A DNA stretch of 64,000 nt from Candidatus Methanomethylophilaceae archaeon (GCA_035271165.1 DATERX010000028.1:1-64000), one strand, 5' to 3'; shown: positions 3,098 through 33,476, counted from the stretch's first letter. Numbers and translations are program-made. Notes: generated by a model not told the origin, from the letters alone.

Positions 3098-3682
3098 TTA
3101 TTTTTTAGAGATCACGACAGCCGTGGTTATATCGGATCGGGTACGCTCGATGATCCCTCTTGCGATGTCCTGTTTCCTTCTTATCGGGACCACGGCGTCA
3201 GGTACGTCGAACATCAAGATGCCGTCGGCGATGTCCTCCATCATCTCGAATATGGATACGGCGCCATCCAGGTCGCCATCCATCAGGTTCTTCAGCACTA
3301 TGCGCCTCAGCTCCCCAACGGTATCAGCTAGACCTAGTACCCAGGATCTCTCGTCTATCCCAAGGTCGATGAACGAGGGGACCTTACCCGAAGATAGGAC
3401 GTCCTTCAGGATTATCGCCTCCGCATATTCAGATAACGCATCGGACGCAGGTCCCGAGCGCAGAAGACCGGCATCCATATCTATCTCGATTGTCAGTTTC
3501 TTGACAAGTTCCGATATGTTATCGACCTCGTCCCCGTCCAGTTTACCTTCGTGAATCGAGTGTATGATCTTCTTAGAGCTCCTGATGATCTCACGGGACG
3601 AGCGTATCACGTTCTCTCTGCTGTTTTCCGCTGCGGTAAAACGTTTTTCCACAACATCCAGTAATTCCTTGAGTCCTTTCAT
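3098..3682 (-). CDS. All-helical ~22 kDa protein, tentatively translin-family
   Basis: 194 aa. SEYAEAIILKDVL...GLADTVGELRRIVL resembles the archaeal translin core (Y.EA...YL.GL.D..GELRR). Confidence 0.4.
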   Translation of the reverse strand: MKGLKELLDVVEKRFTAAENSRENVIRSSREIIRSSKKIIHSIHEGKLDGDEVDNISELVKKLTIEIDMDAGLLRSGPASDALSEYAEAIILKDVLSSGKVPSFIDLGIDERSWVLGLADTVGELRRIVLKNLMDGDLDGAVSIFEMMEDIADGILMFDVPDAVVPIRRKQDIARGIIERTRSDITTAVVISKK

Positions 3683-3695
3683 GATACGGCATATG

Positions 3696-4484
3696 TCATC
3701 GGATGTTTAAAATTGAAGTGAAGAAGGAATCCCTGATCTTGTTGAGGTATAGCTCCTTCCTCATCGCCTTGTTGAAAACAGCCTTAGCCGGGACTATGAA
3801 CTCCGTATCCTTGTATTCGATATCCCAGAGTGTGAGGCCATCCGCCCTCGCGAGACCGAAACACCTATCTTCGCCTTTTAGGGCCCTTAACACATCCTCG
3901 TTCTCAGCCTCACCGCGACCGACGGATATTATCGCTGATGCCATGCGTCGGACCTGATTCCACAGGAACGCCCTCCCGCTACAATCGTACCATAGGTAGT
4001 CCCCGTCCTCTGTTATCTCTGATTTTCTAATCAGACCCAAGGTCTCCCTACCATCATATATACAGAAACGGGAGAAGTCGTGTTCCCCGACGAAAAGTGA
4101 TGCACAGCTACGTGCGCGTTCTATATCGATATCCTCCGCGGGCATCACATATCGGTATGTGCGGGAATGGGCGGTCCTTATTTTGAAATCATTCGGCACC
4201 AGGGCGTACGAATGATAGAACACCCCCCATGACACCGCGTTCAGAGCCTTCAACAGAGCCACCGGATCCTTGAAATCTGTATAGAATGCTATGACGTTCC
4301 CTGTGGCATTGACGCCCTTATCGGTTCTGCTGGCGAATCTTAAGAACACGTCATCTATCGAATTGTTACAGACATCCTCGATGGCTTTGGTGACCTCGCT
4401 CTCAACGGTCCTAAGTCCCGGCTGCCTCTGGGAGCCGTAGAATCCTTTGCCCATGTAGGCTATCTTGATGGCGATTCTTTTCAT
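3696..4484 (-). CDS. truA: tRNA pseudouridine(38-40) synthase TruA
   Basis: N-terminal IAYMGKGFYGSQRQP matches the TruA YDGT.F.GWQ.Q signature; 262 aa. Confidence 0.85.
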   Translation of the reverse strand: MKRIAIKIAYMGKGFYGSQRQPGLRTVESEVTKAIEDVCNNSIDDVFLRFASRTDKGVNATGNVIAFYTDFKDPVALLKALNAVSWGVFYHSYALVPNDFKIRTAHSRTYRYVMPAEDIDIERARSCASLFVGEHDFSRFCIYDGRETLGLIRKSEITEDGDYLWYDCSGRAFLWNQVRRMASAIISVGRGEAENEDVLRALKGEDRCFGLARADGLTLWDIEYKDTEFIVPAKAVFNKAMRKELYLNKIRDSFFTSILNIR

Positions 4485-5806
4485 GCTCCACGGATCTCTT
4501 TCATGCGGTCGACCTTTTTCTGAATCAAGTCCCGTCTTCCGATGTCATGCCTTACCCTTATGCCATCGCTCATCACAAATCTAAGAGCCGTCTCACAGTT
4601 CCAATCCGCACTTTCAAGTGAATTGTCTATGCCGACGATACCTATGGAACGTGATGTGCCGGTGACGACTATCGCCCTATTTTTGATGTCCACGTTGGCG
4701 TAATATATTCTCGAACCCGCCCTATGTATCTCGTCCTCGTCCACCCTGATCTCATGACCGGTCTCGGGCATCGTCCCGTATCCCTTGGGCACCACATATT
4801 TGCACACGGTGGCTTTTTTTGCGAACCTCACGTTCTCACCCAACGTACCGTTTGCCATGTCCCAACATATTTTCTCGAAGCTGTCCTCGAGTATCGGCAG
4901 GACGTTCATGGCCTCCGGGTCACCAAACCTTGCGTTGATCTCTATGATCTTGGGCCCGTCCTTTGTGAGCATGAACTGACCGTACATGACGCCATGATAT
5001 GGGCAACCCTCATCCGACATCGCCTTAACAATCTGTTTGAGTATATTCAGCGAGGCGTCCCTCTCCTCCTTCATGACGAATGGGAGGAGGTGATCCGCAT
5101 CGGAATAGGAGCCCATACCGCCGGTGTTCGGACCAGCATCACCCTCATACGCCCTCTTGTGGTCTTGCACCAAAGGCATCGGTGCGATGGTCTTCCCATC
5201 GCAGAACACCATCTGCGTATATTCCTCGCCGACAGCCTTCTCTTCGATGATCACGCCGGCGTTTCCTATGTTCTGATCGAATATCTCGTGGACGTAGCCC
5301 ATCATCTCATCGATCGTGTGAAGGTGCTCCCCTTCGACCTTCACTCCCTTGCCCCCGGTCAGACCGATGGGTTTGACGACCACCTCATAGTTCACGGATT
5401 CCAGGTATTCCCTCACCCCCTCGGGGCTGTTGAAGGACGCATATCCTAGATTACCATCGACATCGTACTTTTCCACAAGCTCCCTCATGAAGGATTTGGA
5501 CGTCTCAATCCTAGAGGCGGCCTTCGTAGGAGAGGCGCAAGTTATCCCCGCTGCCTCAAGGGCATCCACTATCCCGTTCTCCAGAGGAGCCTCGGGACCC
5601 ACGAACGCCAATTCGATCGCATTCATTTTAGCATATTCCAAGATCCTAGGAAAGTTGCTCTCATCCGTCAGTAGGAAATCCTCGGACATCTTCATTATGC
5701 CAGGATTCCTGTTCTTCATAACCGCATATACCTTGGAGCCTGCCCTGCAGAAAGCCTCCACGGCGGCGCACTCCCTGCCGCCCCCTCCGATCGTAAGGAC
5801 CCTCAT
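4481..5806 (-). CDS. purD: Phosphoribosylamine--glycine ligase (GAR synthetase)
   Basis: MRVLTIGGGGRECA start; ATP-grasp motifs; 441 aa; 4-nt overlap with truA. Confidence 0.9.
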   Translation of the reverse strand: MRVLTIGGGGRECAAVEAFCRAGSKVYAVMKNRNPGIMKMSEDFLLTDESNFPRILEYAKMNAIELAFVGPEAPLENGIVDALEAAGITCASPTKAASRIETSKSFMRELVEKYDVDGNLGYASFNSPEGVREYLESVNYEVVVKPIGLTGGKGVKVEGEHLHTIDEMMGYVHEIFDQNIGNAGVIIEEKAVGEEYTQMVFCDGKTIAPMPLVQDHKRAYEGDAGPNTGGMGSYSDADHLLPFVMKEERDASLNILKQIVKAMSDEGCPYHGVMYGQFMLTKDGPKIIEINARFGDPEAMNVLPILEDSFEKICWDMANGTLGENVRFAKKATVCKYVVPKGYGTMPETGHEIRVDEDEIHRAGSRIYYANVDIKNRAIVVTGTSRSIGIVGIDNSLESADWNCETALRFVMSDGIRVRHDIGRRDLIQKKVDRMKEIRGA

Positions 5807-5817
5807 TCAAAAACACC

Positions 5818-6468
5818 TCATAATTTCAGCTTTACGAGGATTTCGTCCACACCCTCGTCCTTCTTTACGCTGCATTTATAGAGATCCTTCAGACCGCCCA
5901 TGAGTTTATTGTAATCTTCCGCTATGACGGCCGGATTCACGCCGACGGCATCCGCGATATCCATCTTGTTCAGTATGGCGATGTCCGAATGCAGGAATAT
6001 GCTGTGATGCTTCCTAACCATGTCGTCCCCTTCCGTGGTGGATATGACGACAACCCTGTAATCCGTTCCCAGTGGGAAGTCCGCAGGACACACCAGATTA
6101 CCGACGTTCTCTATGAACAACACGTCGTAATCATCGAGATTCACCTTTGCCAGTGATCTGGCTATGAGGTTCGAGTCCAGATGACATTCCGACCCGGTGT
6201 TGCAGTTGATGACGTCCATACCGGACGCCTTCATCCTTGCGAAATCATCATCGCCCACGACGTCTCCCGCTATTCCGAGCACCCTTACGCCCTTGTCCCT
6301 CAGTTTCTCTGCCAATTTGATTATCAGCGACGTCTTCCCGGATCCTATTGAGCCCATGAAGTCCACCGATCTGATATCGTGCTCCTTCAGGAGACGGTAG
6401 TTCTTATGGGCTAATTTGGAATTCTCTTTGAGGACGTCGAATTCCATACCCACTTGTACGAAGTGCAT
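5818..6468 (-). CDS. hypB: Hydrogenase nickel-incorporation GTPase HypB
   Basis: P-loop MGSIGSGKTSLI and CH motif (ECHLD); length typical of HypB/UreG family. Confidence 0.8.
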   Translation of the reverse strand: MHFVQVGMEFDVLKENSKLAHKNYRLLKEHDIRSVDFMGSIGSGKTSLIIKLAEKLRDKGVRVLGIAGDVVGDDDFARMKASGMDVINCNTGSECHLDSNLIARSLAKVNLDDYDVLFIENVGNLVCPADFPLGTDYRVVVISTTEGDDMVRKHHSIFLHSDIAILNKMDIADAVGVNPAVIAEDYNKLMGGLKDLYKCSVKKDEGVDEILVKLKL

Positions 6469-12245: not shown

Positions 12246-13115
12246 TCATCCCCTTTTGCGCATTATCAATACCGTGAGCACGAAGAACAACACCCCCGAC
12301 AGGATCAGATAAAATACGCCGAACTCCGGTGTAGCCATCCAGTCCCCTATGTATATGTCGAAACCGAGCAATTCCCTGTATTCCTGAATATCTCCTGTAG
12401 CCGCGAAGGTGTTGTTCAGCACAGGAGCCCCTAAGATATCCCTGTACATCGCGGCGGAATGGTTCATCGGAAAAAGGTTAAAGGAAGATTGTACCCCACT
12501 CGAGAAATGACCGATGGGAATGAACGTACCGGTCATGAATCCTATCAACACGTTCACCAGCATAGCGAATCCGTTGAAGGACGCCCTCGTCCTAAGAAGT
12601 GATGTGAAGAAGAAGATAATGGTACATGACGAGAAGACAGAGGGAACCATCAGGGCCATGGCCTGACCCATAGCGACGGCGGAGAACCCGAAACCAGTCG
12701 CGAACATGTAGGACGCGGTTATCAACAGGAACACGAAAGATAGGAGGATCCCGATCACGAAGGCGGAAACCACATATCCGGCGGTTATGGACATCGAGCT
12801 CACAGGGGACGACTTAAAATCGTCCAGGACGCCCGTGGACCTATCCCTTACCACCAGCCCCATTGCCGCGATAGAGGAGGATATAGGTATCATGCTCATA
12901 AGCCCGCCTATCAACCAGGAATCGACCAGCACGGATGCGCCGGATTCGGAATCGAACCCAGATATGATGGAGCTTCTCAGTATTGTAACGTAAAGAACCA
13001 GGACGATCAGGACACTGAGCAGGGAGGCAATCACGGAACCCCTGTCCCTGAAGAACATCCTCATCGCCCTAATGGTCAGGATACCCGAGTTCCTACCCTC
13101 TTCCTTGAAATTCAC
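12246..13115 (-). CDS. ABC-2 family transporter permease
   Basis: Polytopic (6 TM) ABC-2-type permease profile; 4-nt overlap with the upstream permease paralog. Confidence 0.7.
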   Translation of the reverse strand: MNFKEEGRNSGILTIRAMRMFFRDRGSVIASLLSVLIVLVLYVTILRSSIISGFDSESGASVLVDSWLIGGLMSMIPISSSIAAMGLVVRDRSTGVLDDFKSSPVSSMSITAGYVVSAFVIGILLSFVFLLITASYMFATGFGFSAVAMGQAMALMVPSVFSSCTIIFFFTSLLRTRASFNGFAMLVNVLIGFMTGTFIPIGHFSSGVQSSFNLFPMNHSAAMYRDILGAPVLNNTFAATGDIQEYRELLGFDIYIGDWMATPEFGVFYLILSGVLFFVLTVLIMRKRG

Positions 13116-14002
13116 ACCCTGGACCTCCTATTCATAACTGCGACGGCCAGTAAGAAGAATATCGCCGCGCTGGCCACGATAATCACGACACTCGACCATT
13201 CGGGGAACATCCAATCTCCGAGATACAGGTCGTATCCGAGGTCGGCACGGAACGTCTCAAGGCTTCCCTGAGGTGAACCTAAGAACATATCCTCCGCCGA
13301 TGGTCCTGCCATTATATCCCTGAACAATGAGGCGGAATGGGTCATCGGTAACAATGAACAGAAGGACGCCACCGACGTGGGGAGAAGGCCTAATGGCACG
13401 TACACTCCCGTGATGAAGCCCGCCATTATGCCGACGGTGAGGGACAACCCGGTAAAACCGCCCTCGCTCCAGATCAGCGAGGTCAAAAAGAACATTATGG
13501 AGGTCGATGAAAGTATGGAAATCAGGAGAAGGCCCAATACCTTGGCCATCTGCATCAGGGACAGCATCTCCTCGCCGATGGCGACGATGTATACCATGCC
13601 CAATAGTAAGGTCAAAATGCTCAACAGCGACCCAACGATCAAAGTGGAAAGCATATAACCTCCAGTAAGGGAGTAGGACGAAGCGGGTGAGGAATTAAAA
13701 TCCCTGATTCTACCCGAATATCTATCGGATACCAATATCCCCAAGGCACCGCCAGTCGTTGTGACCGGTACTATGGCCATAAGACCTGCGACCAACCAGA
13801 GATCCGTGGTACGGGCCGCAATTCCTGAGTTTATCTCAGGAAGCCCGCTGATAAACGAGGCCCGGAGCATGAACACATACAACCCTATCACCACCAAAGC
13901 CCCGAGCAATGAGAATAGAACGGACATCCTGTCCCTGAAGAACATCAGCATGTTCCGTTTTGTCATCGCGGATAGCGAGGCAGGTATCTGGAGGCCGGGC
14001 AT
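13112..14002 (-). CDS. ABC-2 family transporter permease (paralog)
   Basis: Similar TM architecture and N-terminal KRNMLMFFRDR motif shared with the 12246..13115 product; 1-nt overlap with the ATPase gene. Confidence 0.7.
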   Translation of the reverse strand: MPGLQIPASLSAMTKRNMLMFFRDRMSVLFSLLGALVVIGLYVFMLRASFISGLPEINSGIAARTTDLWLVAGLMAIVPVTTTGGALGILVSDRYSGRIRDFNSSPASSYSLTGGYMLSTLIVGSLLSILTLLLGMVYIVAIGEEMLSLMQMAKVLGLLLISILSSTSIMFFLTSLIWSEGGFTGLSLTVGIMAGFITGVYVPLGLLPTSVASFCSLLPMTHSASLFRDIMAGPSAEDMFLGSPQGSLETFRADLGYDLYLGDWMFPEWSSVVIIVASAAIFFLLAVAVMNRRSRV

Positions 14003-14919
14003 CAGACGATCGTTCCTCCGGTGACGTTTATGAAAGCATCATCCATTGTGCCCATCCTTACCTCCAGGGAATCAATCAGGTCCCTGTGGCGAGAGATGAT
14101 ATCTATGGAATCCTTCGTGTTTCCAAGTTTAATGACAATCCTATCACTGCCGTTCTGTTCGTATGCGATGCCATCGGCGTCCAGGGCGTTCTTCAAATTC
14201 TCTATTTCACGGGATGACATGAACAGAAAGTCCGAGGTATAATTCTCCTTGAGCTCAGAGGGAGTGCCCTCAGCGGCTATCCTGCCCTCATTGATAATAA
14301 TCACATGGTCGGCACCCTCAGCCTCCTCCATGTAATGGGTGGTGAGGAACACGGTAATCCCATCATCCTCCCTCAGTCGGAGGATGGTGTCCCATACGTT
14401 ATTCCTAGTCTGCGGATCCAATCCGGTAGTAGGCTCGTCCAACATAAGTATGCGGGGTTTGTTGATCAGGGCACGGGCGATATCCGACCTTCTCCTCTGA
14501 CCTCCGGACAACCTACCGTAGTGACGGTCGAGGATTTCATCGATACCTGTGGCCTTGGACGCCCATACCATCCTCTCCTCAAGCTCCTTGCCACGGAGTC
14601 CGTAGAGCGCGCCTCTTGTACTGAGGTTCTCACGCACGGTCAGCAAAGGGTCCAACGTACCGGTCTGGAACACGATACCGAGCCTATTCCTGATCTCACT
14701 ATCATCCATACCAACGATGAATCCATCCACGGTTATCTCGCCCATATCAGGTTTCAGCAGAGTACATATCATGTTGATGGTCGTGCTTTTCCCTGCGCCG
14801 TTGGGACCTAAGAACGCGAACAGCTGCCCCCTCCCGACAGTGAACGAGATATCGTCAACAGCGCGTATCTCTCCGAAGCTCTTACTCAGATTGGCGACCT
14901 TAATCATCTCATTCATCAT
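14002..14919 (-). CDS. ABC transporter ATP-binding protein
   Basis: Walker A GPNGAGKST, signature LSGGQRRR, Walker B ILMLDEPT. Start chosen at MMNEMIKVANL (14919) rather than the ORF-track start at 15060, whose extension has no ABC homology. Confidence 0.8.
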   Translation of the reverse strand: MMNEMIKVANLSKSFGEIRAVDDISFTVGRGQLFAFLGPNGAGKSTTINMICTLLKPDMGEITVDGFIVGMDDSEIRNRLGIVFQTGTLDPLLTVRENLSTRGALYGLRGKELEERMVWASKATGIDEILDRHYGRLSGGQRRRSDIARALINKPRILMLDEPTTGLDPQTRNNVWDTILRLREDDGITVFLTTHYMEEAEGADHVIIINEGRIAAEGTPSELKENYTSDFLFMSSREIENLKNALDADGIAYEQNGSDRIVIKLGNTKDSIDIISRHRDLIDSLEVRMGTMDDAFINVTGGTIV

Positions 14920-21633: not shown

Positions 21634-21708
21634 GGGCCCTTGGGGTAGCGGATATCCTGTCGGCCTTCGAAGCCGAGGACTCGGGTTCGAATCCCGGAGG
21701 GCCCACCA
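21634..21708 (+). tRNA. tRNA-Arg(TCG)
   Basis: Acceptor GGGCCCT/AGGGCCC, anticodon stem TCGGC/GCCGA, loop CTTCGAA, T-arm TCGGG-TTCGAAT-CCCGG, CCA encoded. TATA-like TATTTAAAATAAA lies ~30 nt upstream. Confidence 0.8.
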
Positions 21709-21860: not shown

Positions 21861-22354
21861 GGTTCTTGCATTCGCCAGTACAACATTTGTTACAGAACGC
21901 AAAGGAGATTACCGAACACATCATTTCCTCAATCTGATTACCAGATTGAGCTTGAATATCAAATCACCATCGATGGTCTTCTCGATCTTCGCGTATTCCG
22001 ATCTGGTCGTACTATAGGTATCCAGATAGGATCTGTTGAAGAGGTACTTCTCGAACTCGTTCCTGTTATTGAGGTGAAGGCGCCAGGGAGACCTGACATA
22101 TGCTACCCCGGGAGAGGGATAGCGACATTCGTCAATGGTTGTTTCTGGTACCGGTGCCCAAAATGTGACCTCCCATTATAAGGGTCAATATTGATTTTTG
22201 GACGGCCAAATTCCAGGGTAACGTGGAACGTGACATCAGGAACACCATGGAGCTCGAATCCTCTGGATGGGCCGTCATCACAATCTGGGAATGTGAGATA
22301 AAGGAAGATAATGATGCGGTTTTGGACAGATTACTGTCTGTCCTTGTGTTTTGA
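21861..22354 (+). pseudogene. vsr: Decayed very-short-patch-repair (Vsr) endonuclease gene: no start codon, one frameshift, catalytic His residues replaced
   Basis: Frame A to the stop at 22179: APGRPDICYPGRGIATFVNGCFWYRCPKCDLPL*. Frame B to the stop at 22354: NIDFWTAKFQGNVERDIRNTMELESSGWAVITIWECEI...; E. coli Vsr has ...FVHGCFWHGHHC...EFWLEKIGKNVERD...GWRVLIVWECAL. Confidence 0.7.
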
Positions 22355-22362: not shown

Positions 22363-22932
22363 TCAGTTCCCAGGATAGGTCACCAGGGATTCCACGTCAT
22401 ATCCCTTCAATTTGTCGCGCCCATTCAGCCCGGCGAGCTCTATGACGAAGCATATCTTCACAATCTTTCCGCCGAGCCTCTCGATCATCTTGATCATGGC
22501 TTCAGTCGTACCGCCGGTGGCGATGAGATCGTCAACGATCACCACCCTCTGTCCGGGTTTGATACAATCTACATGAAGTTCCAATTCCGCTGTGCCGTAT
22601 TCCAGGTCGTACTCCTGGGAGATGGTCTCACGCGGAAGCTTTCCCTTCTTCCTTACGATGATGAAACCCTTGTTCATGGCGTATGCAACGGGAGCTCCGA
22701 AGATGAATCCCCTGGATTCGGATCCGGCCACAAGGTCGTAATCTATCCCGTCGAGCATCTCTACTATGCCGTCTATGGATTTTGCAAAACCATCCTTATC
22801 CTGTAAAACGGTTGTAATGTCTCTGAACATTATCCCTTTGGAAGGGAAATCCGGTATGGTCTCGATATAGTCTTCAACGGTCTTCATGTGGTAACCATCA
22901 CACAGGACTACCTGAACAGTATAAAAAGACAA
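22363..22932 (-). CDS. Purine phosphoribosyltransferase (adenine PRTase-like)
   Basis: PRPP-binding motif VVIVDDLIATGGT; 189 aa. Confidence 0.7.
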   Translation of the reverse strand: MSFYTVQVVLCDGYHMKTVEDYIETIPDFPSKGIMFRDITTVLQDKDGFAKSIDGIVEMLDGIDYDLVAGSESRGFIFGAPVAYAMNKGFIIVRKKGKLPRETISQEYDLEYGTAELELHVDCIKPGQRVVIVDDLIATGGTTEAMIKMIERLGGKIVKICFVIELAGLNGRDKLKGYDVESLVTYPGN

Positions 22933-23329
22933 TTATGTTAGAAGTTGCCCCCCTTGAAAAGGGGGTAAGGGGCTGGCAAACGCCAGTGTTATTGCGGTCA
23001 TCATTAGCGTCTTGCAGACCGTTCAGGTATGGTCAATCAGAGTAAAGCGCCATCAGGCCCGTCTTATGCTCTTTGTTACCGTAGTACCTTGTTGAACTTT
23101 CTTCGCCGCAGATCTTTGTGTATTTTCGTTTACCGATAGCCACTTACCTCCAGAATATACACGGAATTACTACTATTTATAGCAATCGTTCAACGAATTA
23201 CGTTGATTATCGAATATTACCTACGAATATCGTAATTAATTAGTTGAAAAGTATAGAAAACAGGGTTTTGAACAAAAACCCCTCGGTAGTGCATCATTGA
23301 TGATAGTATAAGGAAAAGAAAAAGAAAGA

Positions 23330-23345
23330 AGCCGGCCGTGGCCGG
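23330..23345 (-). terminator. Hairpin GCCGGCC-ACG-GCCGGC followed on the transcript by an oligo-U tract
   Basis: Lies 10 nt after the stop of 23356..24459; the minus-strand transcript then reads UUCUUUCUUUUUCUUUUCC. Confidence 0.6.
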
Positions 23346-23355
23346 CGTGATGGTT

Positions 23356-24459
23356 TCAGCCCAACTGTTCGGAGCAGTACGGACAGAACTTTGGCGTCTT
23401 CTTCAGACCCTTTAAGCTCTCCCCGCAGTAAGGGCACACGTTGAACACCTTGATGTCACCGGATCCCGAGGCCCCCTTCTGCATCGCAGGCGGCGGTAGC
23501 GGGTCTCTAAACTCCTCGAGCGCCTGTTGCTGAGGTGAGGGTTTTCCGCAGTCGTTGCAGTATTTGTACGGATAATCGTTAGGTGATCCGCAGTACGGAC
23601 ACAGGACCTTGGGAGCCTGCCCTTTATGACTCTGTTCCGTGGCCTGCTGCTGTTGCAGCTGTTGATACATCTGCGGGAAAAGCAACATACCGGTACCGAT
23701 CGCGGCACCTCCCTCGGAGTTACCTATCGCATCTGCCATGCGGTCCATGACTGAGTATCTCTTGAACGCCTCTCCCCTCTGGGAGCTGAACTGAAGATAT
23801 TCGAAGATCTTCTCCTGGTCCTCGTCGGTGGTCCTGAGCTCTGAAATCTTGAATGCCAATAGCTCGATACCCCTCTGGCGGAAGTACGGGTCGATCAACG
23901 CCCTCGTCGCGGACGATGCAAGCTCAAGACTCGAATAGACCTCCATGAAGTACTGTTTCGTGAGCTGCTGGGTGATCTGTTCGTTTATGAAGCTCTTCAT
24001 GAAGGCATTGACGTCACCGGTGCTGTAGGCGCTCATACCCCCAAGTATCTGAGTGTAGAATATCGCCACGTCGTTGATGCGGAACTGATAATCGCCGTTC
24101 GCCATCAAAGTGATCGGAACATCGTAATCGGGTGCGGCCTTGATCATACCCCTTATGCCCCACTTCCCGTTGAACATCTTAAGCGAGACGAATATGACCT
24201 GGACCTTGAACGGGGTCTCCTTATATCCCAGGGCAAGGTTGTAGAGTCTTGTCAGCCAGGGTATGTTGGACGTCGTCAACGTATGCCTTCCAGGCTCCAA
24301 AACACCGGTCAGCTGACCATCCCTCACGAACAACGCCACCGCATGTTCAGGTACTGTAACAGAGGTGACGGTCCTGAGGTCGTCCCTCTCGTACACATAA
24401 ACCATGTCGTCCTGGCCTTGGTTCTTCCATGATATGACATTGGTCTTTTCAACGACCAT
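23356..24459 (-). CDS. YdjI-type SPFH/Band-7-like protein with Q-rich linker and two C-terminal zinc ribbons
   Basis: N-terminal domain resembles B. subtilis YdjI (VISWKNQGQDDMVYVY...FVSLKMFNGKWGIRG). Q-rich linker QMYQQLQQQQ; Cx2C-x9-Cx2C and Cx2C-x12-Cx2C at the C-terminus. Confidence 0.6.
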   Translation of the reverse strand: MVVEKTNVISWKNQGQDDMVYVYERDDLRTVTSVTVPEHAVALFVRDGQLTGVLEPGRHTLTTSNIPWLTRLYNLALGYKETPFKVQVIFVSLKMFNGKWGIRGMIKAAPDYDVPITLMANGDYQFRINDVAIFYTQILGGMSAYSTGDVNAFMKSFINEQITQQLTKQYFMEVYSSLELASSATRALIDPYFRQRGIELLAFKISELRTTDEDQEKIFEYLQFSSQRGEAFKRYSVMDRMADAIGNSEGGAAIGTGMLLFPQMYQQLQQQQATEQSHKGQAPKVLCPYCGSPNDYPYKYCNDCGKPSPQQQALEEFRDPLPPPAMQKGASGSGDIKVFNVCPYCGESLKGLKKTPKFCPYCSEQLG

Positions 24460-24464
24460 TCAAA

Positions 24465-25007
24465 TCACTCCTTCGCCAGGAATCCCTTCATGACGGTTTC
24501 CCTTTCGTTATAGTCCTCGATCAATCTGTCGATGGTCCTCTCGACATCTCTGAGAGGAGTCTTGATGGCGTATTCACCCTGGTCAATCTTCTGTATCAGG
24601 TTGCCGATCTCCTTCCTCAGTAGGACGGTGCCGCCTATCAACTTGGCATCCCATGATATCAGGTCGTCCAGCTCCTCTTCCAGTATCTTGACCGAGGCAT
24701 GCCATCCGCTATAACCGTTCACGGCCTTCTTCACAGATATGTAATACTTGTCCACCTTCGAGGCTATCCTCTCGACATCCCTCATGAGGTCCAGGTTCTC
24801 TATGGCGACCCTGTGTACGGTTGCGAGATCGTTCTTTGCCCCCTCAAGGGTACGGGCGACCTCCTGTCTTATGGCACGGTCCTCGTCCCTACGGAGGTTT
24901 TTCTCTTTGTATCCCCTGTAGATGGGGATGTAAAGACCTACGCGTTCGATGAGTGACGTTGTGCCCTCCATCTTTTCGCTAACTGTCTCTTCCAACGGCA
25001 TTTTCAA
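24465..25007 (-). CDS. Soluble helical/coiled-coil protein of unknown family (operon member)
   Basis: 180 aa, no TM helix, charged heptad-like stretches; 4-nt overlap with the upstream 4-TM gene. Confidence 0.4.
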   Translation of the reverse strand: MKMPLEETVSEKMEGTTSLIERVGLYIPIYRGYKEKNLRRDEDRAIRQEVARTLEGAKNDLATVHRVAIENLDLMRDVERIASKVDKYYISVKKAVNGYSGWHASVKILEEELDDLISWDAKLIGGTVLLRKEIGNLIQKIDQGEYAIKTPLRDVERTIDRLIEDYNERETVMKGFLAKE

Positions 25008-25387
25008 TCACTCCTTATATCACGATTTTTAACAGCCAATACTATCACGAGTATGGCGATGATCAGGACTATCATTGCCACGGGGGCAATCCAGTCAAGG
25101 TCGGTGAACATGTACATGTAACCGGCCAGTCCGATAACCAGCATAAGCACGCCCATCACAAGGCTGTAGTCCGCCTCACTAGGTCCGAAGTTTGTACTCC
25201 GCCCCTTCTGCAACGGTGCCAACACTGCTACGGTCACCCCCATCATAATTAGTATCACCCAGAGGATGATGCTAGCTCCCATATCGGTTGCGTAGTATAA
25301 CACCAGGCCCACCACCAGCGATATAAGGAACATCGCCCCCGATATGGCTGAAAGGGTCCTGTTAGCCCTTCTGTCTCTGCTTTTCAT
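25004..25387 (-). CDS. Small integral membrane protein (4 TM)
   Basis: 127 aa, four hydrophobic helices, basic N-terminus MKSRDRRANR. Confidence 0.5.
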   Translation of the reverse strand: MKSRDRRANRTLSAISGAMFLISLVVGLVLYYATDMGASIILWVILIMMGVTVAVLAPLQKGRSTNFGPSEADYSLVMGVLMLVIGLAGYMYMFTDLDWIAPVAMIVLIIAILVIVLAVKNRDIRSD

Positions 25388-25406
25388 CTTTTCGCCTCCC
25401 TATATA

Positions 25407-26945
25407 TCATATCATTATGAGTTGATCCGTGTTTACTCTTTTCATCCTCTCGGGCAAGAGCTTGCCGAAGCCGTCGATCACTACCATACCGTTCGAGATC
25501 CTGCAAGGAATATAGAGCAGGCCTTTGACATAAGGCTTGCTAAGTTTCAACTTGTTATCGTTCTTAGTGCTTTGCACGAGATAGTTATTGGTAAGGTGTT
25601 CGGCCTCCTTCTTTGTGCTCAGGGGAATCATTATCCTGCGTGCACCGGGACTGCCCGGTCTCGCCGCCTCTGAAATCATCCCTATACCCTCTCCGCCACT
25701 GATGCTCTTTTCCATTCCGCGCAGTCCTGCGAGGATGCTCTTCGGCGGTGAGAGGGAGAATATGTCTGTAAGTCCCGATGAAGGGTTGGTGAGACATCCA
25801 CGGTCTATGGTGAAGTCTGCAGGTATCAGCAGATCCTCAAGTACCTCAACGCTCTTCTTAGACCACAAGGCACCGGTGACGAAGCTGTATCTCAGATTCA
25901 CATACCAGAAGGGGAACAGATGGTCCCCACCTCCAGGTGCGATCATTATCGTATCGTTACCGCTCCTGGAGCTGAGCGCGGCGGAGAGATGGTCGAAGAG
26001 TTCCTTGTTACGGTCCTTGTTCCTTAGGATCCCCCAACCGCTCACGTTGGGATACTGTATCGAATATATTCTGGATAAAGTGGAAAGTGTCTTCACGGCA
26101 TCCCCGCCTGTGGATGCGGCGTTCTTCACAGTCTCGGTGAGCACGGTTATCTTAGAAAGCTCCCTACCCACTCCCTGATACATGACCGCTAGGGAGGGGA
26201 TCGCCAACAATTCGTTTCTAGCCTCCTCTAGCCCGGCAACGCTCTTCTCAAGATAGGATATGCTTCCCAAGGTGTCCCCGTTCAGCATCTTCTCGCATCC
26301 CTCGCACGCCTTTGCGAGGGAATCGAAGCGTTTTGCAACAGGGGCATAGTTAGCCGTACCCCTCAACAGCTCCGCGGCCTGGGAGAAGTTGTTTCCCATA
26401 AGGACGTACCTTCCAGGTTTGTCCTCCTGCAGGAGTTTAACATTGTTAAGCATAAGTGCGTAGGAGTTCACGATCCCCTCTGCATCGGAAAGCTCCTTTT
26501 TATCATCAATGTCCACCGCCAGGGACGATAGGCTTTTTATCTTGGCGTCGAACTCGAAAGCGGATGCCGGCGAATGTACAGGTCTCACGGTAACGTCGAA
26601 GGAGAAGGGCATTACGAAGAGCGAGTTGGTCATAAGGGTGTTCGCCGCGAACCTGTATTCCGTTATCTCGGCGTTCATCCTCGGTTTGACGTTGGTGACG
26701 TAGATGTTGTGCCTCGCCACCGAGTCTACATTCTCCGCCTGTGACATGGAGAACCCTCTGGGCATCGCGTTGCTGACCCATGATCGGACCTGACCCATCA
26801 ATTGGTCGAGGTATGCCTTGGCATCCATCCGCTGCTGTGTGGTACCGCAGCTCTTGCATGAGATGTACGGAGTATCCGCCTCCACGTCCTTCGCGTCGAA
26901 CGGCGCTCCGCAATATTTACATCGTAAAAGCACAAGGTCGTCCAT
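25407..26945 (-). CDS. 512-aa uncharacterised protein with N-terminal zinc ribbon
   Basis: LRCKYCGAPF-x17-CKSCGT at the N-terminus; the rest is soluble alpha/beta with no motif I recognise. Confidence 0.4.
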   Translation of the reverse strand: MDDLVLLRCKYCGAPFDAKDVEADTPYISCKSCGTTQQRMDAKAYLDQLMGQVRSWVSNAMPRGFSMSQAENVDSVARHNIYVTNVKPRMNAEITEYRFAANTLMTNSLFVMPFSFDVTVRPVHSPASAFEFDAKIKSLSSLAVDIDDKKELSDAEGIVNSYALMLNNVKLLQEDKPGRYVLMGNNFSQAAELLRGTANYAPVAKRFDSLAKACEGCEKMLNGDTLGSISYLEKSVAGLEEARNELLAIPSLAVMYQGVGRELSKITVLTETVKNAASTGGDAVKTLSTLSRIYSIQYPNVSGWGILRNKDRNKELFDHLSAALSSRSGNDTIMIAPGGGDHLFPFWYVNLRYSFVTGALWSKKSVEVLEDLLIPADFTIDRGCLTNPSSGLTDIFSLSPPKSILAGLRGMEKSISGGEGIGMISEAARPGSPGARRIMIPLSTKKEAEHLTNNYLVQSTKNDNKLKLSKPYVKGLLYIPCRISNGMVVIDGFGKLLPERMKRVNTDQLIMI

Positions 26946-26949
26946 GGGG

Positions 26950-27888
26950 TCACCTCCTGAGATAGCTCAGCTGTGAATGTATAGCATACAGTTCCGCCTG
27001 CATCCTGGCCTCGGTCGCCCTTATCTCAGACATGGCGTTCTCGTGATAGCGTTGTGCTATCTCGTCCGCCTTCTTGGTGATGCTGGAATGACACGCCCTG
27101 CAGGCATAGATTGCCTCGTGGTCCTCCGTCTCGGAGGTAAGGGGCTCCCTGCCCGGCGGCGTACGGAGCGCTGGCGATATGTCGCTGGGGAGTGCGAAGA
27201 AATGTATACCAAGGCCGGAGACGACCCTGCCGCAATACCAGCATTTGCATGTCTTCGCATAATCGTTGATCAACCGGAGGTTCTCCTCCCCGGTATCGCC
27301 CATCTGTTTCCGGTATCCGTAAGCTATCTGTTGGTACTCGGCGGCCTTTCGCGGATCTTCCCAGACGGTACCAGTGGCATAGGCCTCATATCCCATGGCC
27401 ATAAGCATGGCACCTTCCTTCATACCGGTCCTTGTCGTATCGTTGTTGTAAATCTCGCTTAATTTCAAAGTCTCTTCGCCGACCTCGGTCTGATACCTCT
27501 GCGCTAATTCGACGAGCTTCTGGCCCTTGTCGACGAGATCCCTTCCGGAGCCGCGCATATTGGTGATTCTTATCTCCTCGATGGCAAGCTCCGATTGTTT
27601 GATCATGGTCTCGGTATTCACCATCGTCAGGCCGAACTCGAACTCCTTGGCATCGGTATTCTTAAGCGATGTGATGAGATTCCTATATGCTCCGACGTCC
27701 CCCATGTTGCCACGTAGATCAATCATGCCGACCACGACGGCCGAAAGGTCGTCTGGACCGCCATCCTTCCTTATCGATAGGAGGAGCCTTTCCCGTGCCT
27801 TGGCGAATTCCCCCTGCCGTATCAGGTCCATTCCCTGAATGTGCAGGTCATCTGCTTTCTTGAATCTGGAGAAAACCATCTGCTTCAT
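26950..27888 (-). CDS. 312-aa helical (TPR-like N-terminus) protein with C-terminal Cys-rich zinc-ribbon-like region; first gene of operon
   Basis: DLIRQGEFAKARERLLLSI helical-repeat-like N-terminus; CKCWYCG...CRACH cysteine cluster; C-terminal coiled coil. Confidence 0.4.
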   Translation of the reverse strand: MKQMVFSRFKKADDLHIQGMDLIRQGEFAKARERLLLSIRKDGGPDDLSAVVVGMIDLRGNMGDVGAYRNLITSLKNTDAKEFEFGLTMVNTETMIKQSELAIEEIRITNMRGSGRDLVDKGQKLVELAQRYQTEVGEETLKLSEIYNNDTTRTGMKEGAMLMAMGYEAYATGTVWEDPRKAAEYQQIAYGYRKQMGDTGEENLRLINDYAKTCKCWYCGRVVSGLGIHFFALPSDISPALRTPPGREPLTSETEDHEAIYACRACHSSITKKADEIAQRYHENAMSEIRATEARMQAELYAIHSQLSYLRR

Positions 27889-28123
27889 CCCAATATGGGA
27901 TTATTAAGTTAAAAACTATCTGACATGGATCGCACATAAAGAAAGAGGACGAAGTGTTAATGATAGGTTCAGAACGGAACCGCCCCCTCACCGTCTGAAT
28001 ATTCCACAGCTGTTAATGATTCAATCTCCATGTGCAATCCAGAGGTATGACGGGTGACCTGCAAACACGTGCCTTACTGTTCTAATCATTACTTTGTCCG
28101 CGTAATGGTATAAAATGATAGAT

Positions 28124-28131
28124 TTATATAG
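28124..28131 (+). promoter_or_regulatory. TATA box (TTTATATA) of thermosome gene; GGAGG RBS at 28181-28185
   Basis: AT-rich box 63 nt upstream of ATG 28194; the position fits an archaeal promoter with a ~35-nt leader. Confidence 0.5.
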
Positions 28132-28193
28132 AAGAACAAACTTTAACCACTATAATCCACAGAAATGGAATATTGTATTGGAGGATAAAAAAC

Positions 28194-29816
28194 ATGGGTA
28201 TGGGTAACGCACCTATTTTGATTCTTAGAGAAGGAACCAAGAGGAATAAAGGAAAGGACGCTCAATACAACAACATCTCGGCGGCAAGGGCCATCGCAGA
28301 TTCAGTAAAGAGCAGCCTAGGACCCAGGGGTATGGACAAGATGCTTGTCGACTCACTGGGAGACGTCGTCATTACGAATGACGGAGTTACAATTTTGAAA
28401 GAGATGGATGTGCAACATCCCGCGGCAAAGATGCTCGTAGAGGTTGCAAAGGCACAAGATGCAGAGGTAGGGGACGGAACAACATCCTCCGTCATAATAA
28501 CAGGCGAACTCCTGAAGAAGGCGGTCGACCTGATCGAATCCAACGTTCACCCCACCATCATCACAGCAGGATACAAGCTTGCCAACGATGAGGCACAGAA
28601 GGTATTGTTGGACATCGCGAAAAAGGTCACCATCGATGATGAGGAGATCCTAAGGAAGGTCGCCGAGATCGCTATGATAAGCAAACAGGCGAGCGGTGCG
28701 AAGGAATACTTTGCCAAACTGACCGTTGATGCCGTCAGGACCGTCGCGGAGAAGGGCGAGGACGGAAAATACACCGTTGACCTTAGCAACATCCAGACAG
28801 TCAAGAAGGCTGGTGCAAGGATGGAGGAGACCAAGCTCTACAAGGGATTGGTCATCGACAAGGAACCCGTACAGCCCAGCATGCCTAAGGTCGTAAAGGA
28901 CGCGAAGATCGCTCTCATCGATGCTGCTTTCGAGGTCAAGAAGACCGAGATGGAGGCAAAGATCCAGATCACAGACCCCTCCCAGATGGCAGGTTTCATC
29001 GCAGAGGAAGAGAACATGCTCAGAAGGATGGTCGACTCAGTCAAGGCATCCGGAGCCAACGTGGTGTTCTGCCAGAAAGGTATCGACGACGTAGCACAGC
29101 ACATGTTCGCCAGCGCGGGGATATTCGCATGCAGGCGTGTCAAGAAGAGTGATATGGACAGGCTAGCTAAGTCCACCGGTGCATCCGTCATCAACAAGGT
29201 GAGGGACATAAGCGCCGAGGACCTCGGATTTGCGGGCAAGGTCGAAGTGAAGAAGGTCGAGAACGAAGAGATGACCTTCATCACAGAGGTCAAAGACCCC
29301 AAGACTGTCTCCGTGCTCGTAAGGGGCGGAACCCAACATGTCGCAGACGAGATCGAGAGATCCCTTGTGGACGCATGGTCCGCAGTAAAGGCCACAGTAG
29401 AGGACGGCCTTATCGAGACCGGCGGTGGATCCAAGGAGATGGAGATCGCAATGCGCCTCAGGGACCACGCATCATCCATCGGTGGAAGGACACAGATCGC
29501 TCTCGAAGCGTTTGCATCCGCCATGGAGGTAATCCCGGCGACACTCGCCGAGAACGCAGGTCTAGACCCCATCGACATGCTCATCGAGATGAGGAAACAG
29601 CACAAGGAGGGCAAGATAACGGCTGGAATCAACCCCTTCACCGGAAAGGTGGAGGACATGATGAAATCCAATGTCATCGAACCCTATAGAGTCGGTAAAC
29701 AGGCCATCAACGCCGCTACCGACACCGCTGTGATGATCCTCAGGATCGACGATGTCATAGCATCCTCCAGTAGCGGAGAGATGGACATGGGCGATCTCGA
29801 CGACTACGACGAGTGA
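28194..29816 (+). CDS. ths: Thermosome subunit (group II chaperonin)
   Basis: N-terminal [14 protein letters not shown] motif GDGTTS, acidic MGDLDDYDE tail. Start at ATG 28194 after the RBS, not the ORF-track 28173. Confidence 0.9.
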
Positions 29817-29834
29817 AACGGTAAATCAAACACA

Positions 29835-29853
29835 GGGGGGGGTTTTACCCCCT
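29835..29853 (+). terminator. Hairpin GGGGGGGG-TTTTA-CCCCCC after thermosome stop
   Basis: Strong G/C stem 19 nt after the stop codon. Confidence 0.45.
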
Positions 29854-29885
29854 CCCGACCTTACAAAAACCTGAGATGATCGCAG

Positions 29886-30455
29886 ATGACTGATAAGTCC
29901 AGAAAGGGAAAAGAGCTGAAAAAAAAAGGTCTGGAAGAGGAGGTTGTGTACCACACAGAATCCGTGAAGGACGAGCTCACAGAAGCGATGGCACTGGCCG
30001 ATCAATATCTCGATGCGGCCAAACGAATACAGGCGGACTTCGACAATTATAGAAAAAGGTCCGTCAAAGAGATGAATGATTTCAAGAGAAAGGCCACGGA
30101 TGACCTGATCACCGAACTACTGAGCACTGTCGACGACCTAGACAGAGCGCTCGAGAACACGGATGAGGACACAGAGTTCATTCGCGGAATAAAGGGCGTA
30201 CGGCAAAACCTGATGAAGGCGCTGGCGTCCTACGGGCTCGAAGAGATCCCGACCAATTGCAAATTCAATCCCGAATACCATGAGGCACTGAGTGTCGCGG
30301 AAGGGAAAGAGGACGGGGAGATAGCTGAGGTGTACCAGAAAGGGTACGTCTGCGGCGACCGCGTCCTTAGATATTCAAAGGTCAAAGTGAATAAGGCTCT
30401 CGAGAAAGAGGGTCAGACAGCCGGAGAGACGGCAGAACAAAACAGAGAGGAATGA
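29886..30455 (+). CDS. grpE: Nucleotide exchange factor GrpE
   Basis: Coiled-coil N-terminus, DFDNYRKR motif, ~190 aa. Confidence 0.85.
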
Positions 30456-30463
30456 GAGATATG

Positions 30464-32323
30464 TCAAGAATAATAGGAATCGATCTGGGGACCAGCAACT
30501 CAGCTGCGGCGGCGATGGAGGGCGGCAGGCCGACCATCATCCCCAGCGCCGAAGGAACAAGCGTGGGCGGAAAATCATTCCCGTCCTACGTGGCATTCAC
30601 AAAAGAAGGCGAACTGCTGGTTGGAGAACCGGCAAGGAGACAGGCGGTAACAAACCCTGAGGGTACCATAAAGAACGTAAAGAGGAAGATGGGGTCCAAT
30701 GAGAAGATCACCATATTCGGTAAGGATTACACACCCCAGCAGATTTCCGCATTCATACTTCAGAAGATTAAGAGGGATTCAGAGTCCTTCCTAGGAGAGA
30801 CGATAAACAAGGCGGTCATCACGGTGCCCGCATACTTCGACGATAACCAGAGGCAGGCCACCAAGGATGCCGGGGCGATTGCCGGACTTGAAGTCGTACG
30901 TATGATCAACGAGCCCACATCCGCCGCTTTGGCGTTCGGTCTCGACAAGAGTGACACAGAACAGAAGATAATGGTCTTCGACTTCGGAGGAGGAACCCTC
31001 GATGTCACGATCATGGACCTTAGCGACGGGGTCTTTGAGGTCCTTTCGACGAAAGGGGACACCAAGCTCGGCGGATCGGACATGGATGAGAACATCACCA
31101 AGTACGTCACCGACGAGTTCAAGAAACAGACCGGTGTCGACCTAACCACGGACAAGATGGCGTTCTGGAGAGTGAGGGAAGCATGTGAGAAGGCGAAGAT
31201 CGAACTCTCGACAACCATGCAGACCGAGATAAACCTCCCCTTCATATCATCCGACGCCTCGGGACCCAAGCACCTTGTGCAGACGCTAACTCGCTCCAAG
31301 CTCGAGGAACTTGTGGAACCCATCATCGTAAGATGCAAGGAAAGCATAACCGGAGCCGTCAAGGATGCTAAGATCAAGATGGACGACATCGACAAGATCA
31401 TAATGGTGGGAGGTCCGACAAGGATGCCCTCCGTCCAGAACTACGTCGAGAGCGTCGTAGGACCCAAGATTCAGCGCGGAATAGACCCGATGGAATGTGT
31501 TTCCATGGGAGCCGCGGTCCAGGGAGCCGTACTTTCAGGGGACGTCAAGGACGTCCTCCTGCTGGACGTAACGCCCCTGACCCTCGGTATCGAGACCCTC
31601 GGCGGTGTGGCGACCCCGCTCATCGAGAGGAACACCACCATACCCACCAAGAAATCACAGATATTCTCCACCGCGGCCGATAACCAGCCCTCGGTCGAGA
31701 TCAACGTGGTTCAGGGTGAGAGAAAGATGGCCGCGGACAACACGTCGCTCGGTCGCTTCATACTAGACGGTATACCTCCAGCACCCCGCGGGATACCTCA
31801 GATAGAGGTCACATTTGACATCGATGCCAACGGTATCGTGACGGTGACTGCTAAGGACACGGGAACCGGCAAGGTACAGAAGATAACAATCGCATCATCA
31901 AGCAAGCTCAATGACGACGAGATTGAACAGATGATCAAGGACGCGGAGAAGTTCGCGGACGCAGACAAGAAGAAGGTCGAGGTTATCGAAGTCCACAACC
32001 AGGCGGAATCCAACATTCATATGGTCCGTAAGTCACTGGACGAGCTCGGGGACAAGGTCTCACAGGAAGAGAGGTCATCCGTGGAAGCGGCGATCACCGA
32101 CCTTGAGACCGCGAACAAGACCGAGGACATCGACCAGATCAAGGGCAAGATAGATGCACTGATGAAGGCCTTCGAACCCATATCCACAAGGATATACCAG
32201 GAGGCCTCACAGGCACAGGCCGAAACCGGAGGACCCAAAGGACAGAAGTCCCACGAGAACCCCGAGGACGACGTCGTCGATGCGGACTTCAAGATAGTCG
32301 ATGACGACGAAGAAAAGAACTGA
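30464..32323 (+). CDS. dnaK: Chaperone DnaK (Hsp70)
   Basis: [18 protein letters not shown] and other Hsp70 signatures; acidic C-terminus. Confidence 0.95.
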
Positions 32324-32336
32324 GGCGTGACTGTAG

Positions 32337-33476
32337 ATGGGTAAAGACTACTATGAGACGCTCGGAGTCACTAAAGATTCCACACCCGACGAGGTAAAGA
32401 AGGCATACCGTAAGCTCGCCAAGAAATATCATCCGGACGTGACCTCGGAGCCCAAAGATGTGGCCGAGGCCAAGTTCAAGGATATATCCGAGGCTTACGA
32501 GGTGCTCTCAGACCCCGAGAAGAAGGAGACATACGACAGGTTCGGTAGCGATGCCGTCAACAGTCATTTCTCCGGAGGCGGGTTCTCATGGGAAGATTTC
32601 ACCCACGCAGACGACATCAACGACATCTTCGGAGACATCTTCGGAGACATCTTCGGAGGTTTCGGAAGAGGCTCCGGGTCCAGGAACAGGGGTCCCCACC
32701 AGGGGAGCTCCCTGCGCATGGACGTGGAGATCACCCTCAACGATGTCCTCAAGGGCGTCAAAAAGAACCTTGAGGTCCCCCACACCGCAAAGTGCGGGGA
32801 CTGTGAGGGTACCGGCGCCAAGGACGGGAAGACCGAGACATGCACACAGTGTAAGGGTAGCGGTCAGACCCGTACCGTACGTCAGACCATGTTCGGCAAC
32901 ATGGTCTCCGTATCCGATTGTCCCAAATGCCGCGGTAAAGGACAGTCCTTCGAGGACAAATGTCCCAAATGCCGCGGTTCGGGATACATTCAGAAGACCA
33001 CAAAGGTCGAGGTGAACATCCCCAAGGGAGTTCATGACGGCTCCACCGTCAGCCTCAGGGGGATGGGGGACGCCAGTCCCGACGGTGGTCCGTCCGGCGA
33101 CCTGTTCGTGTTCGTACACGTGAAGAAGCACGACTCCTTCGAACGCGACGGTGCGAACCTATGGACAGGTATAACGACGACATATCCGAGACTGGTTCTC
33201 GGAGGGGAAGAGGAGGTCCGTACACTGGAAGGTGAAAGGGTCATGCTCAAGATACCCAAGGGGACACAGGTGGGCTCCGTGCTCAGGATAAACGGAAAGG
33301 GTCTGCCCCGTTCGACGAATTCACCCTCGCGTGGCGATATGCTCGTCCGTGTGAAAATCGAAGTCCCGAAGAAGGTGTCCAAGGAGGATACCGAGCTGCT
33401 TAAGAAGCTGGACGAAGGGTCCGGCAGGAAGAAGCCTAAGCAGACACTCCGGGACAAGATCGAGGATATTTTTTAA
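32337..33476 (+). CDS. dnaJ: Chaperone DnaJ (Hsp40), type I
   Basis: J-domain with HPD; G/F region including a 3x DIFG repeat; four CxxCxGxG zinc-finger repeats. Confidence 0.9.
   Translation: MGKDYYETLGVTKDSTPDEVKKAYRKLAKKYHPDVTSEPKDVAEAKFKDISEAYEVLSDPEKKETYDRFGSDAVNSHFSGGGFSWEDFTHADDINDIFGDIFGDIFGGFGRGSGSRNRGPHQGSSLRMDVEITLNDVLKGVKKNLEVPHTAKCGDCEGTGAKDGKTETCTQCKGSGQTRTVRQTMFGNMVSVSDCPKCRGKGQSFEDKCPKCRGSGYIQKTTKVEVNIPKGVHDGSTVSLRGMGDASPDGGPSGDLFVFVHVKKHDSFERDGANLWTGITTTYPRLVLGGEEEVRTLEGERVMLKIPKGTQVGSVLRINGKGLPRSTNSPSRGDMLVRVKIEVPKKVSKEDTELLKKLDEGSGRKKPKQTLRDKIEDIF

Follow-up and report, generated by a model that had tools for sequence, protein, structure and literature searches.

We followed up an initial annotation of a 64,000-nucleotide stretch of DNA from a Candidatus Methanomethylophilaceae archaeon (GCA_035271165.1 DATERX010000028.1:1-64000), hereafter the window, which had pointed to a five-gene operon encoding a candidate membrane-associated system. 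The five open reading frames (ORFs) were found, tightly spaced on the minus strand between 27888 and 23356, where they had been placed. In the direction of transcription we call them gene A (26950-27888, 312 amino acids, aa), gene B (25407-26945, 512 aa), gene C (25004-25387, 127 aa), gene D (24465-25007, 180 aa from a TTG start) and gene E (23356-24459, 367 aa). The junctions A/B, B/C, C/D and D/E measure 4, 19, -4 and 5 nucleotides (nt), respectively. Since homologues of D begin at the ATG at 25001, two codons in, the C/D overlap becomes a 2-nt gap, and this ATG is probably the start of D (178 aa). Gene A, as in its homologues, probably starts at the ATG at 27879 (MVFS, three codons in; 309 aa).

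The signals around the genes are consistent with one transcription unit. A GGAGG-type Shine-Dalgarno sequence precedes each of B, C, D and E, and none was found before A. Upstream of A, an AT-rich TATA-like box read from the sequence (TTTTTAACTTAATAA, 27901-27915, minus strand) is the probable archaeal promoter of the operon, and similar AT-rich boxes are present in L003, L005 and L086, 20-40 nt ahead of the start of A (homologous loci of other genomes are denoted by L and a number throughout). The position of the box and the usual archaeal spacing suggest a leaderless or very-short-leader transcript starting near the ATG at 27879, in which case the first gene would be leaderless and the internal genes led by their Shine-Dalgarno sequences. 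The terminator claimed in the initial annotation was found as a terminator-like element on the minus strand (23321-23346), 10 nt past the E stop. It consists of a 6-base-pair all-GC hairpin (GCCGGC stems around a CACG loop; GCCGGCCACGGCCGGC) and then a T-rich tract (TTCTTTCTTT), hairpin and tract occupying 23346-23331, and transcription would presumably end there. Short junctions, Shine-Dalgarno sequences before B to E, TATA-like box and hairpin with T-tract thus agree with the single-operon claim; the five genes look like one operon, and we take them to be co-transcribed.

Only the product of gene E matches a curated family in Pfam, NCBIfam or PADLOC; for A, B, C and D no match to such a family exceeds the threshold, and the earlier statement that the remaining four could not be matched holds to this extent. 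E matches the SPFH family Band_7_1 (PF13421) over residues 27-220 with 92.6 bits (cutoff 24, E-value 3.5e-26), and PF01145 at 4e-9. A Gln-rich linker leads from the SPFH part to a tail with four CxxC pairs, which make two C-terminal zinc ribbons (C287/290/301/304 and C342/345/359/362); here the DZR model scores 26.1 bits, just below its cutoff of 27.3, and several further zinc-ribbon models match. There is no transmembrane (TM) segment in E, as no hydrophobic 19-mer is over threshold, and a PDB sequence search with E alone gave nothing informative. The architecture recurs in L001, L002, L003, L086, L088 and L089. Band_7_1 with two zinc ribbons is the family-level architecture given for Bacillus subtilis YdjI (PMC11237479), and the description of the last gene as YdjI-like, with SPFH domain, Gln-rich linker and double zinc ribbon, is borne out.

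The product of gene D is predicted to form a compact four-helix bundle after an N-terminal helix (predicted local distance difference test, pLDDT, 85.7; predicted template modelling score, pTM, 0.82). Near-invariant residues are found in the loop joining the N-terminal helix to helix 1 (P28, Y30, G32, Y33, N37-R47), which reads P-x-Y-x-G-Y-K-x-K-N/E-L-R-R-x-x-D-R, and in the helix 2-3 loop (G98, S100); given the up-down topology of the model, the two conserved loops should lie at the same end of the bundle. An exhaustive D-family profile search returned 1157 clusters at 50% identity (E-value <=1e-3; 475 at <=1e-10), nearly all of 165-185 aa with the signature IPGYxGYKEKExRRExD...YGYxGFFD, and no Pfam family was found for the members. 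D, which the initial annotation could not match to a family, is no orphan: its family is very large, and in bacteria and archaea the genes of this family regularly adjoin Band_7_1 genes. Against NCBIfam NF047596, the LIMLP_15305 family of Leptospira (function unknown), D aligns over nearly the whole 175-position profile with an E-value of 1e-7 and 32 bits, and ten diverse D relatives score 35-64 bits with E-values down to 1e-17. These scores are far under the cutoff of 210, so D is a distant superfamily relative and not a member of the equivalog. In the literature, we found LIMLP_15305 mentioned a single time, in a table of non-coding RNAs where it is listed as a neighbour.

The initial annotation had offered D as a possible functional analogue of PspA or ESCRT-III, and this did not hold up. 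Neither PF04012 nor PF03357 matches D at an E-value <=1, hhalign of a 54-sequence D-family alignment against two PspA sequences gives a probability of 0.4%, and the model is a compact bundle, not the long alpha1-alpha2 hairpin with helices packed on it that marks the ESCRT-III fold. By sequence and by predicted fold, D is not PspA/ESCRT-III-like. It does share with PspA, Vipp1 and ESCRT-III that it is all-helical, soluble and about 180 aa long, that it lies beside a Band-7 gene and that it is sometimes in a PspA operon; however, in L089 and L076 it accompanies PspA and does not replace it. A PDB profile search with D found designed coiled coils only, and the structure matches of the model are generic four-helix bundles, with designed proteins scoring alike. 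The N-terminal helix is moderately amphipathic at most (hydrophobic moment, muH, <=0.42), and in Pfam there is a weak match of D to NNH1, the NACHT N-terminal helical domain (E-value 0.011).

The hydropathy pattern of C has four predicted TM helices, as had been annotated, and C is the sole TM protein among the five products; by the same measure A, B and D have no TM segment and are soluble. Collinear 4-TM homologues of C occur in L001, L002 and L005. In a second archaeal lineage, treated below, a 112-aa version follows E; a hidden Markov model (HMM) of C matches L088 at 3e-8 and 35 ORFs in the 81-locus set of that lineage, where the ORF cluster covers 44 of 81 loci. Across 11 members no consistent Pfam family was obtained for C. 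Identity with PspM/Rv2743c was considered and dropped, the matches (E-values 0.09-0.28) being at noise level. C, the one integral membrane component, is presumed to be the anchor.

Genes A and B form a pair, A always lying immediately upstream of B. The A protein has a putatively TPR-like N-terminal helical region, a zinc ribbon (CWxCG...GIHF...YxCRxC, with cysteines C216xxC219...C263xxC266) and a C-terminal coiled-coil helix. It diverges faster than B and D; in the 20 homologues detected, C216, W217, C219, G220, H229, C263, R264 and C266 are invariant. Searched against PDB sequences, the A profile gives a consensus TPR match limited to residues 8-45, that is, to one motif, with E-values of 1.4e-13 on a many-repeat TPR design and of 2.6e-6 to 1e-3 on designs of 2-4 repeats; no Pfam TPR model matches A at an E-value <=1. 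For B, the model (pLDDT 82.9, pTM 0.77) has an N-terminal zinc ribbon (C9xxC12...C30xxC33, invariant among homologues), an alpha-solenoid of about 290 residues (about 42-328) and an alpha/beta domain (333-512). With the ribbons of A and B and the four CxxC pairs of E, the count of zinc ribbons in three of the five products made in the initial annotation was right. B has no sequence match to any PDB chain, and Foldseek against the PDB returned nothing at an E-value <=0.001 for its model (best 0.23), for which reason we call the helical region a TPR-like solenoid. Its likeness to the ESCRT-III-binding Bro1/MIT structures of eukaryotes and archaea, at 5-14% identity and with generic TPR and designed repeat proteins nearly equal in score, is a lead and not a finding; unlike those domains, B carries further parts, a zinc ribbon at the N-terminus and, at the C-terminus, an alpha/beta domain that is unrelated. 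The invariant residues of B make no recognisable catalytic set. We also observed a third CxxC in B (C214/C217) that is in the family consensus and is not invariant, and a Gly-rich loop, SISGGEGIG (414-421), that is conserved, falls in a lower-confidence part of the model and is lost in the L173 homologue.

Whether the five genes occur as a unit in other genomes had been named as a check, and they do. The order is identical on the 1.66-Mb contig L001, in L002 and in L005, from a Methanomassiliicoccaceae metagenome-assembled genome (MAG), and all full-length Methanomassiliicoccales loci that we examined contain the five genes, between differing flanks: the upstream neighbours in L001, L002 and L005 are Gln-synt plus Glu_synthase in two and a RuBisCO-containing cluster in one, and in the window a thermosome gene. 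We detected 220 homologues of B and 250 of D, all of equal length; the named matches come from Methanomethylophilaceae, Methanomassiliicoccaceae, Methanoplasma, Methanogranum and 'Thermoplasmatales' MAGs. More than 30 of the B and D matches agree in the size of the longest contig, and NCBI locus tags are consecutive, e.g. GX224_00955/00960/00970.

The cassette is also found rearranged. L086 has A-B-D-E without C; the contigs of L087, L090 and L091 were too short to be of use. L003 and L004 have A-B-E and then a 225-aa protein (4685-5362 in L003) for which about four TM segments are predicted, ahead of a helical cytoplasmic tail of about 95 aa; no recognisable D or C homologue was found in either locus, and the 225-aa protein may do the work of both. 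In L173 the two pairs are reversed, the order being D, E, A (4e-35) and B (4e-82), and E consists of Band_7_1 with a faint SHOCT match. An association kept through such shuffling of gene order indicates that A, B, D, E and usually C work together, and we regard this as the strongest evidence for a functional unit.

The D-E part of the cassette extends well beyond this order. A genome scan with a narrow D alignment gave at least 600 stretches, 536 of them confirmed, of which the best 80 were analysed, all of them from Chloroflexota since the ranking follows the first sequence of the alignment. HMMs that we constructed on the window family showed an E-like Band_7_1 gene directly downstream of, and co-directional with, the D-like gene in 75 of these 80 loci; four of the five exceptions end at a contig edge, which leaves 75 of 76 informative loci. 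A, B and C are missing from these Chloroflexota loci (L006-L085; L045 is that of Ornatilinea apprima). The E proteins there finish in a short helical tail, which we read as SHOCT-like, a reading that Pfam did not confirm in the one example scanned. Directly upstream (about 0.6 kb), 43 of the 80 carry a gene for a 172-aa protein with two TM segments and a C-terminal zinc ribbon, and a 636-aa DUF2207 membrane protein is encoded about 2.6 kb upstream of the D-like gene in 37. The company of these proteins suggests that zinc-ribbon and membrane partners are recurring themes of the D-E pair, realised by non-homologous parts.

The second archaeal lineage, represented by L088 and 80 metagenome loci (81 in total), has the order mini-B-D-E-C. 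A 247-aa protein that we call mini-B is present in 71 of the 81 loci, D in all 81, E with zinc ribbons in 75 and the 112-aa 4-TM protein in 44; D stands directly upstream of the Band_7_1 gene in 75. Mini-B aligns with B over the zinc ribbon and the next helix alone (93-94% probability). The C-terminal domains fail to align (2% probability), and mini-B as a shortened B was rejected; an impression of a PepSY/YpeB-like ending in mini-B went unconfirmed, Pfam finding nothing there. At one locus of a Lokiarchaeota MAG, a zinc-ribbon-D fusion lies beside a Band_7_1 gene.

Some members of the D family carry a C-terminal DUF4178, a domain that the initial annotation had listed among its leads and that proved relevant, as D-DUF4178 fusions adjoin PspA in two loci. 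The bacterial locus L089 encodes D-DUF4178, then PspA_IM30, then Band_7_1 with DZR; in L076, from Anaerolineae (2864-6302), D, D-DUF4178, PspA and E stand in a row. These two loci are the clearest tie of the D family to the Psp network. DUF4178 and Band-7 are both catalogued as PspA partners (PMC11237479), and together with the PspA/DUF4178 contexts this places the D-E pair in the same functional neighbourhood that the Psp network occupies. In B. subtilis, the localisation of YdjI depends on the membrane proteins YdjG and YdjH, and YdjI recruits PspA (PMC8581546).

Compared with the pspA-ydjGHI operon, the cassette has in E, as in YdjI, a Band_7_1 protein with no TM segment and with C-terminal zinc ribbon(s), it places the SPFH gene beside a zinc-ribbon partner and integral membrane protein(s) able to serve as anchor, and it has a contextual tie to PspA in some D-E loci (L089, L076). 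Unlike that operon, neither the cassette nor the window has PspA; there is no YdjH-like TPM protein, no TPM_phosphatase or PepSY/YpeB match, and C is a bare 4-TM protein; B has a YdjG-like zinc ribbon and no TM segment, where YdjG, compared here by its description (a reported YpeB/NTF2-like domain), serves in the membrane; and nothing described in the ydj operon corresponds to D or to the A-B pair. The cassette is best read as an archaeal relative of the YdjI-type module; PspA is absent from cassette and window alike. With stomatin-NfeD and HflK/C-FtsH, it shares an SPFH scaffold and a dedicated membrane partner in one operon; however, E contains neither a TM segment nor a hairpin, the partners differ throughout, and no NfeD, peptidase or AAA domain occurs in the five products.

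Based on these observations, we propose, with a probability of roughly 0.55, that the five products belong to a single membrane-associated complex, organised around an SPFH (Band_7_1) scaffold with the D-E pair as its basis. We infer that the products interact physically and that E, which has no membrane segment of its own, would oligomerise in the manner of SPFH proteins and be held at the cytoplasmic face of the membrane. C would be the anchor, in the role that YdjG and YdjH have for YdjI in B. subtilis. D would act as the regular partner of this SPFH subfamily, its conserved basic/aromatic loop at one end of the bundle binding E or regulating its assembly. A and B, with TPR-like surfaces and zinc ribbons, may be soluble adaptors specific to the lineage, bringing in clients or linking the scaffold to other factors, and the zinc ribbons of A, B and E probably mediate contacts between proteins. 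As to its likely role, the complex would constitutively organise or maintain the cell membrane, or protect it under stress. The parts, an SPFH scaffold in E and four TM helices in C, fit the 'membrane-associated system' of the initial annotation.

Several observations weigh against this proposal. No PspA_IM30 (PF04012) match was found in the five products at an E-value <=1, and none to PspA in the window when its ORFs were searched by phmmer with the L089 PspA. No recognisable D was found in L003. Because L086 and L173 have no C-like gene in the stretch examined, C cannot be a universal anchor. The roles given to A, B, C and D follow from context and fold, with no characterised homologue, and 'membrane maintenance' is a broad role taken from distant SPFH relatives.

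An unlikely alternative is that the locus takes part in remodelling coupled to ESCRT-III or PspA. The B solenoid would then be a true Bro1/MIT domain binding ESCRT-III tails, and a PspA/ESCRT-III-like protein encoded elsewhere would be recruited to D-E scaffold sites. The recruitment of PspA by YdjI in B. subtilis (PMC8581546) and the position of PspA between D-type genes and E in L089 and L076 are in its favour. However, the Foldseek and sequence searches with B described above gave no significant PDB match, neither PspA nor Snf7 is encoded in the cassette or window, and the Chloroflexota D-E modules have no A or B; moreover, more than half of surveyed archaeal genomes lack Psp domains (PMC9239133). 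That B is a genuine prokaryotic Bro1/MIT adaptor which, with the D-E scaffold, forms an unrecognised membrane-remodelling pathway recruiting a PspA/ESCRT-III-like polymer in Thermoplasmatota and relatives, we consider improbable.

We give similarly little credence to a quality-control cage, in which the E assembly would enclose or regulate a membrane protease or other client encoded elsewhere, as in HflK/C-FtsH and stomatin-NfeD/STOPP, with A, B and D as substrate or regulator adaptors. SPFH proteins, of which E is one, commonly form cages regulating membrane proteases, and the TPR-like surfaces of A and B are typical of client binding. But a protease, NfeD or AAA+ domain is found neither in the five products nor as a conserved neighbour in the loci examined, and the invariants of B do not resemble a catalytic set.

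The spacer downstream of E (22933-23355) has 423 nt and a guanine plus cytosine (GC) content of 0.42, and that upstream of A (27889-28172) has 284 nt and 0.39, compared to a window mean of 0.51; the flanks are AT-rich as had been noted, and the GC content of the cassette itself is like that of its surroundings. That the two longest non-coding stretches of the window flank the operon is roughly correct, although by a crude gene call their ranks are second and fourth. A search of the whole window in Rfam matched tRNAs only, with no RNA family in the flanking spacers. The tRNA-Arg and decayed vsr gene reported near the locus are present: tRNA-Arg(TCG) lies at 21634-21708, and a frameshifted vsr remnant (about 22060-22350, plus strand) lies between it and an apt-like gene (22363-22932), which in turn separates both from the cassette. 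We take the remnant to be of the very-short-patch-repair endonuclease type by its motifs, 'GRPDI...FVNGCFW' in one frame and 'FWTAKFQGNVERDIRNTMELESSGWAVITIWECEI' in another. On the other side, a heat-shock set divergent from the cassette (28173-33476, plus strand) comprises, by sequence motifs, a thermosome subunit (GDGTTS), GrpE, DnaK and probably DnaJ. This adjacency is not kept in L001, L002 and L005, which have other neighbours, so it is probably coincidental, and a conserved link between cassette and heat-shock genes was dropped.

Within the downstream spacer we also noticed a second hairpin with T-run (23282-23262) and a 36-aa ORF on the minus strand (GTG at 23143 to stop at 23033) with a GGAGG Shine-Dalgarno sequence; past this ORF, at about 22925-22960, comes a CCCCTT/AAGGGG hairpin with a T-run. 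This spacer could hold a small protein gene, a small RNA or the apt promoter region. In L173, D-E-A-B is followed (12673-14531) by genes for a 253-aa protein with the motif 'RLRNEVSH' and an AAA_15/AAA_23/SMC_N ATPase. On our reading of its RxxxxH motif, the 253-aa protein may be HEPN-like. Among the loci examined, defence-like neighbours were seen at L173 alone.

The initial annotation had also considered a defence-type system in a variable island, and a PADLOC search was among its suggested checks. The five proteins gave no meaningful match to PADLOC-DB v2, the best E-values being 0.0033 (PDC-M14A, on the B zinc ribbon), 0.084 and 0.25, with no matches for A and D, and no relatives of the cassette were found in viral contigs, phage records or plasmid records. 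An abortive-infection system with D as a membrane-disrupting four-helix effector (cf. plant NLR coiled-coil (CC) and HeLo-type domains) restrained by the SPFH assembly until infection, for which the weak NNH1 match of D, the RxxxxH protein and AAA_15/SMC_N ATPase after the L173 cassette and the vsr remnant and tRNA gene about 1 kb away could be cited, is very unlikely, as the cassette is present order-wide and not patchily, its flanks are variable and of housekeeping type (thermosome, GrpE and DnaK here, Gln-synt/Glu_synthase and RuBisCO elsewhere), its GC content does not stand out, the D bundle matches generic and designed proteins alike, its N-terminal helix is moderately amphipathic at most, and neither PADLOC nor the viral, phage and plasmid records offer support. 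The defence-island reading is unsupported, and the cassette has more the look of a housekeeping complex of the membrane.

We return, then, to a complex built around the D-E pair. SPFH proteins are universal membrane organisers. To our knowledge, their prokaryotic partners are known for few systems, namely HflK/C-FtsH, stomatin-NfeD, flotillin-YqiJ/NfeD and YdjI-YdjGH-PspA. In the literature searched, which did not cover subscription journals, we found no description of this cassette or of the D family. To that extent, an SPFH scaffold with dedicated partners is known and the partner set is new, that is, the D family as a regular Band_7_1 neighbour and the A-B pair; the D-E pair is an apparently undescribed two-gene module of Chloroflexota, Asgard and other archaea. 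Genes of the D family lie regularly beside those of a single SPFH subfamily in Chloroflexota, in Lokiarchaeota and in two or more further lineages of archaea, with PspA/DUF4178 ties in some bacteria, and the family offers a concrete, testable partner for the working of SPFH proteins that have no TM segment. In A, B and C, three families of unknown function are placed in a defined functional context. If B were a Bro1/MIT adaptor after all, ESCRT-style adaptor logic would extend to archaea beyond the Cdv and Asgard systems. The Methanomassiliicoccales include gut methanogens of humans and animals, and a rigid wall is lacking in many of the order, so a dedicated membrane-maintenance complex would plausibly be important to their physiology.

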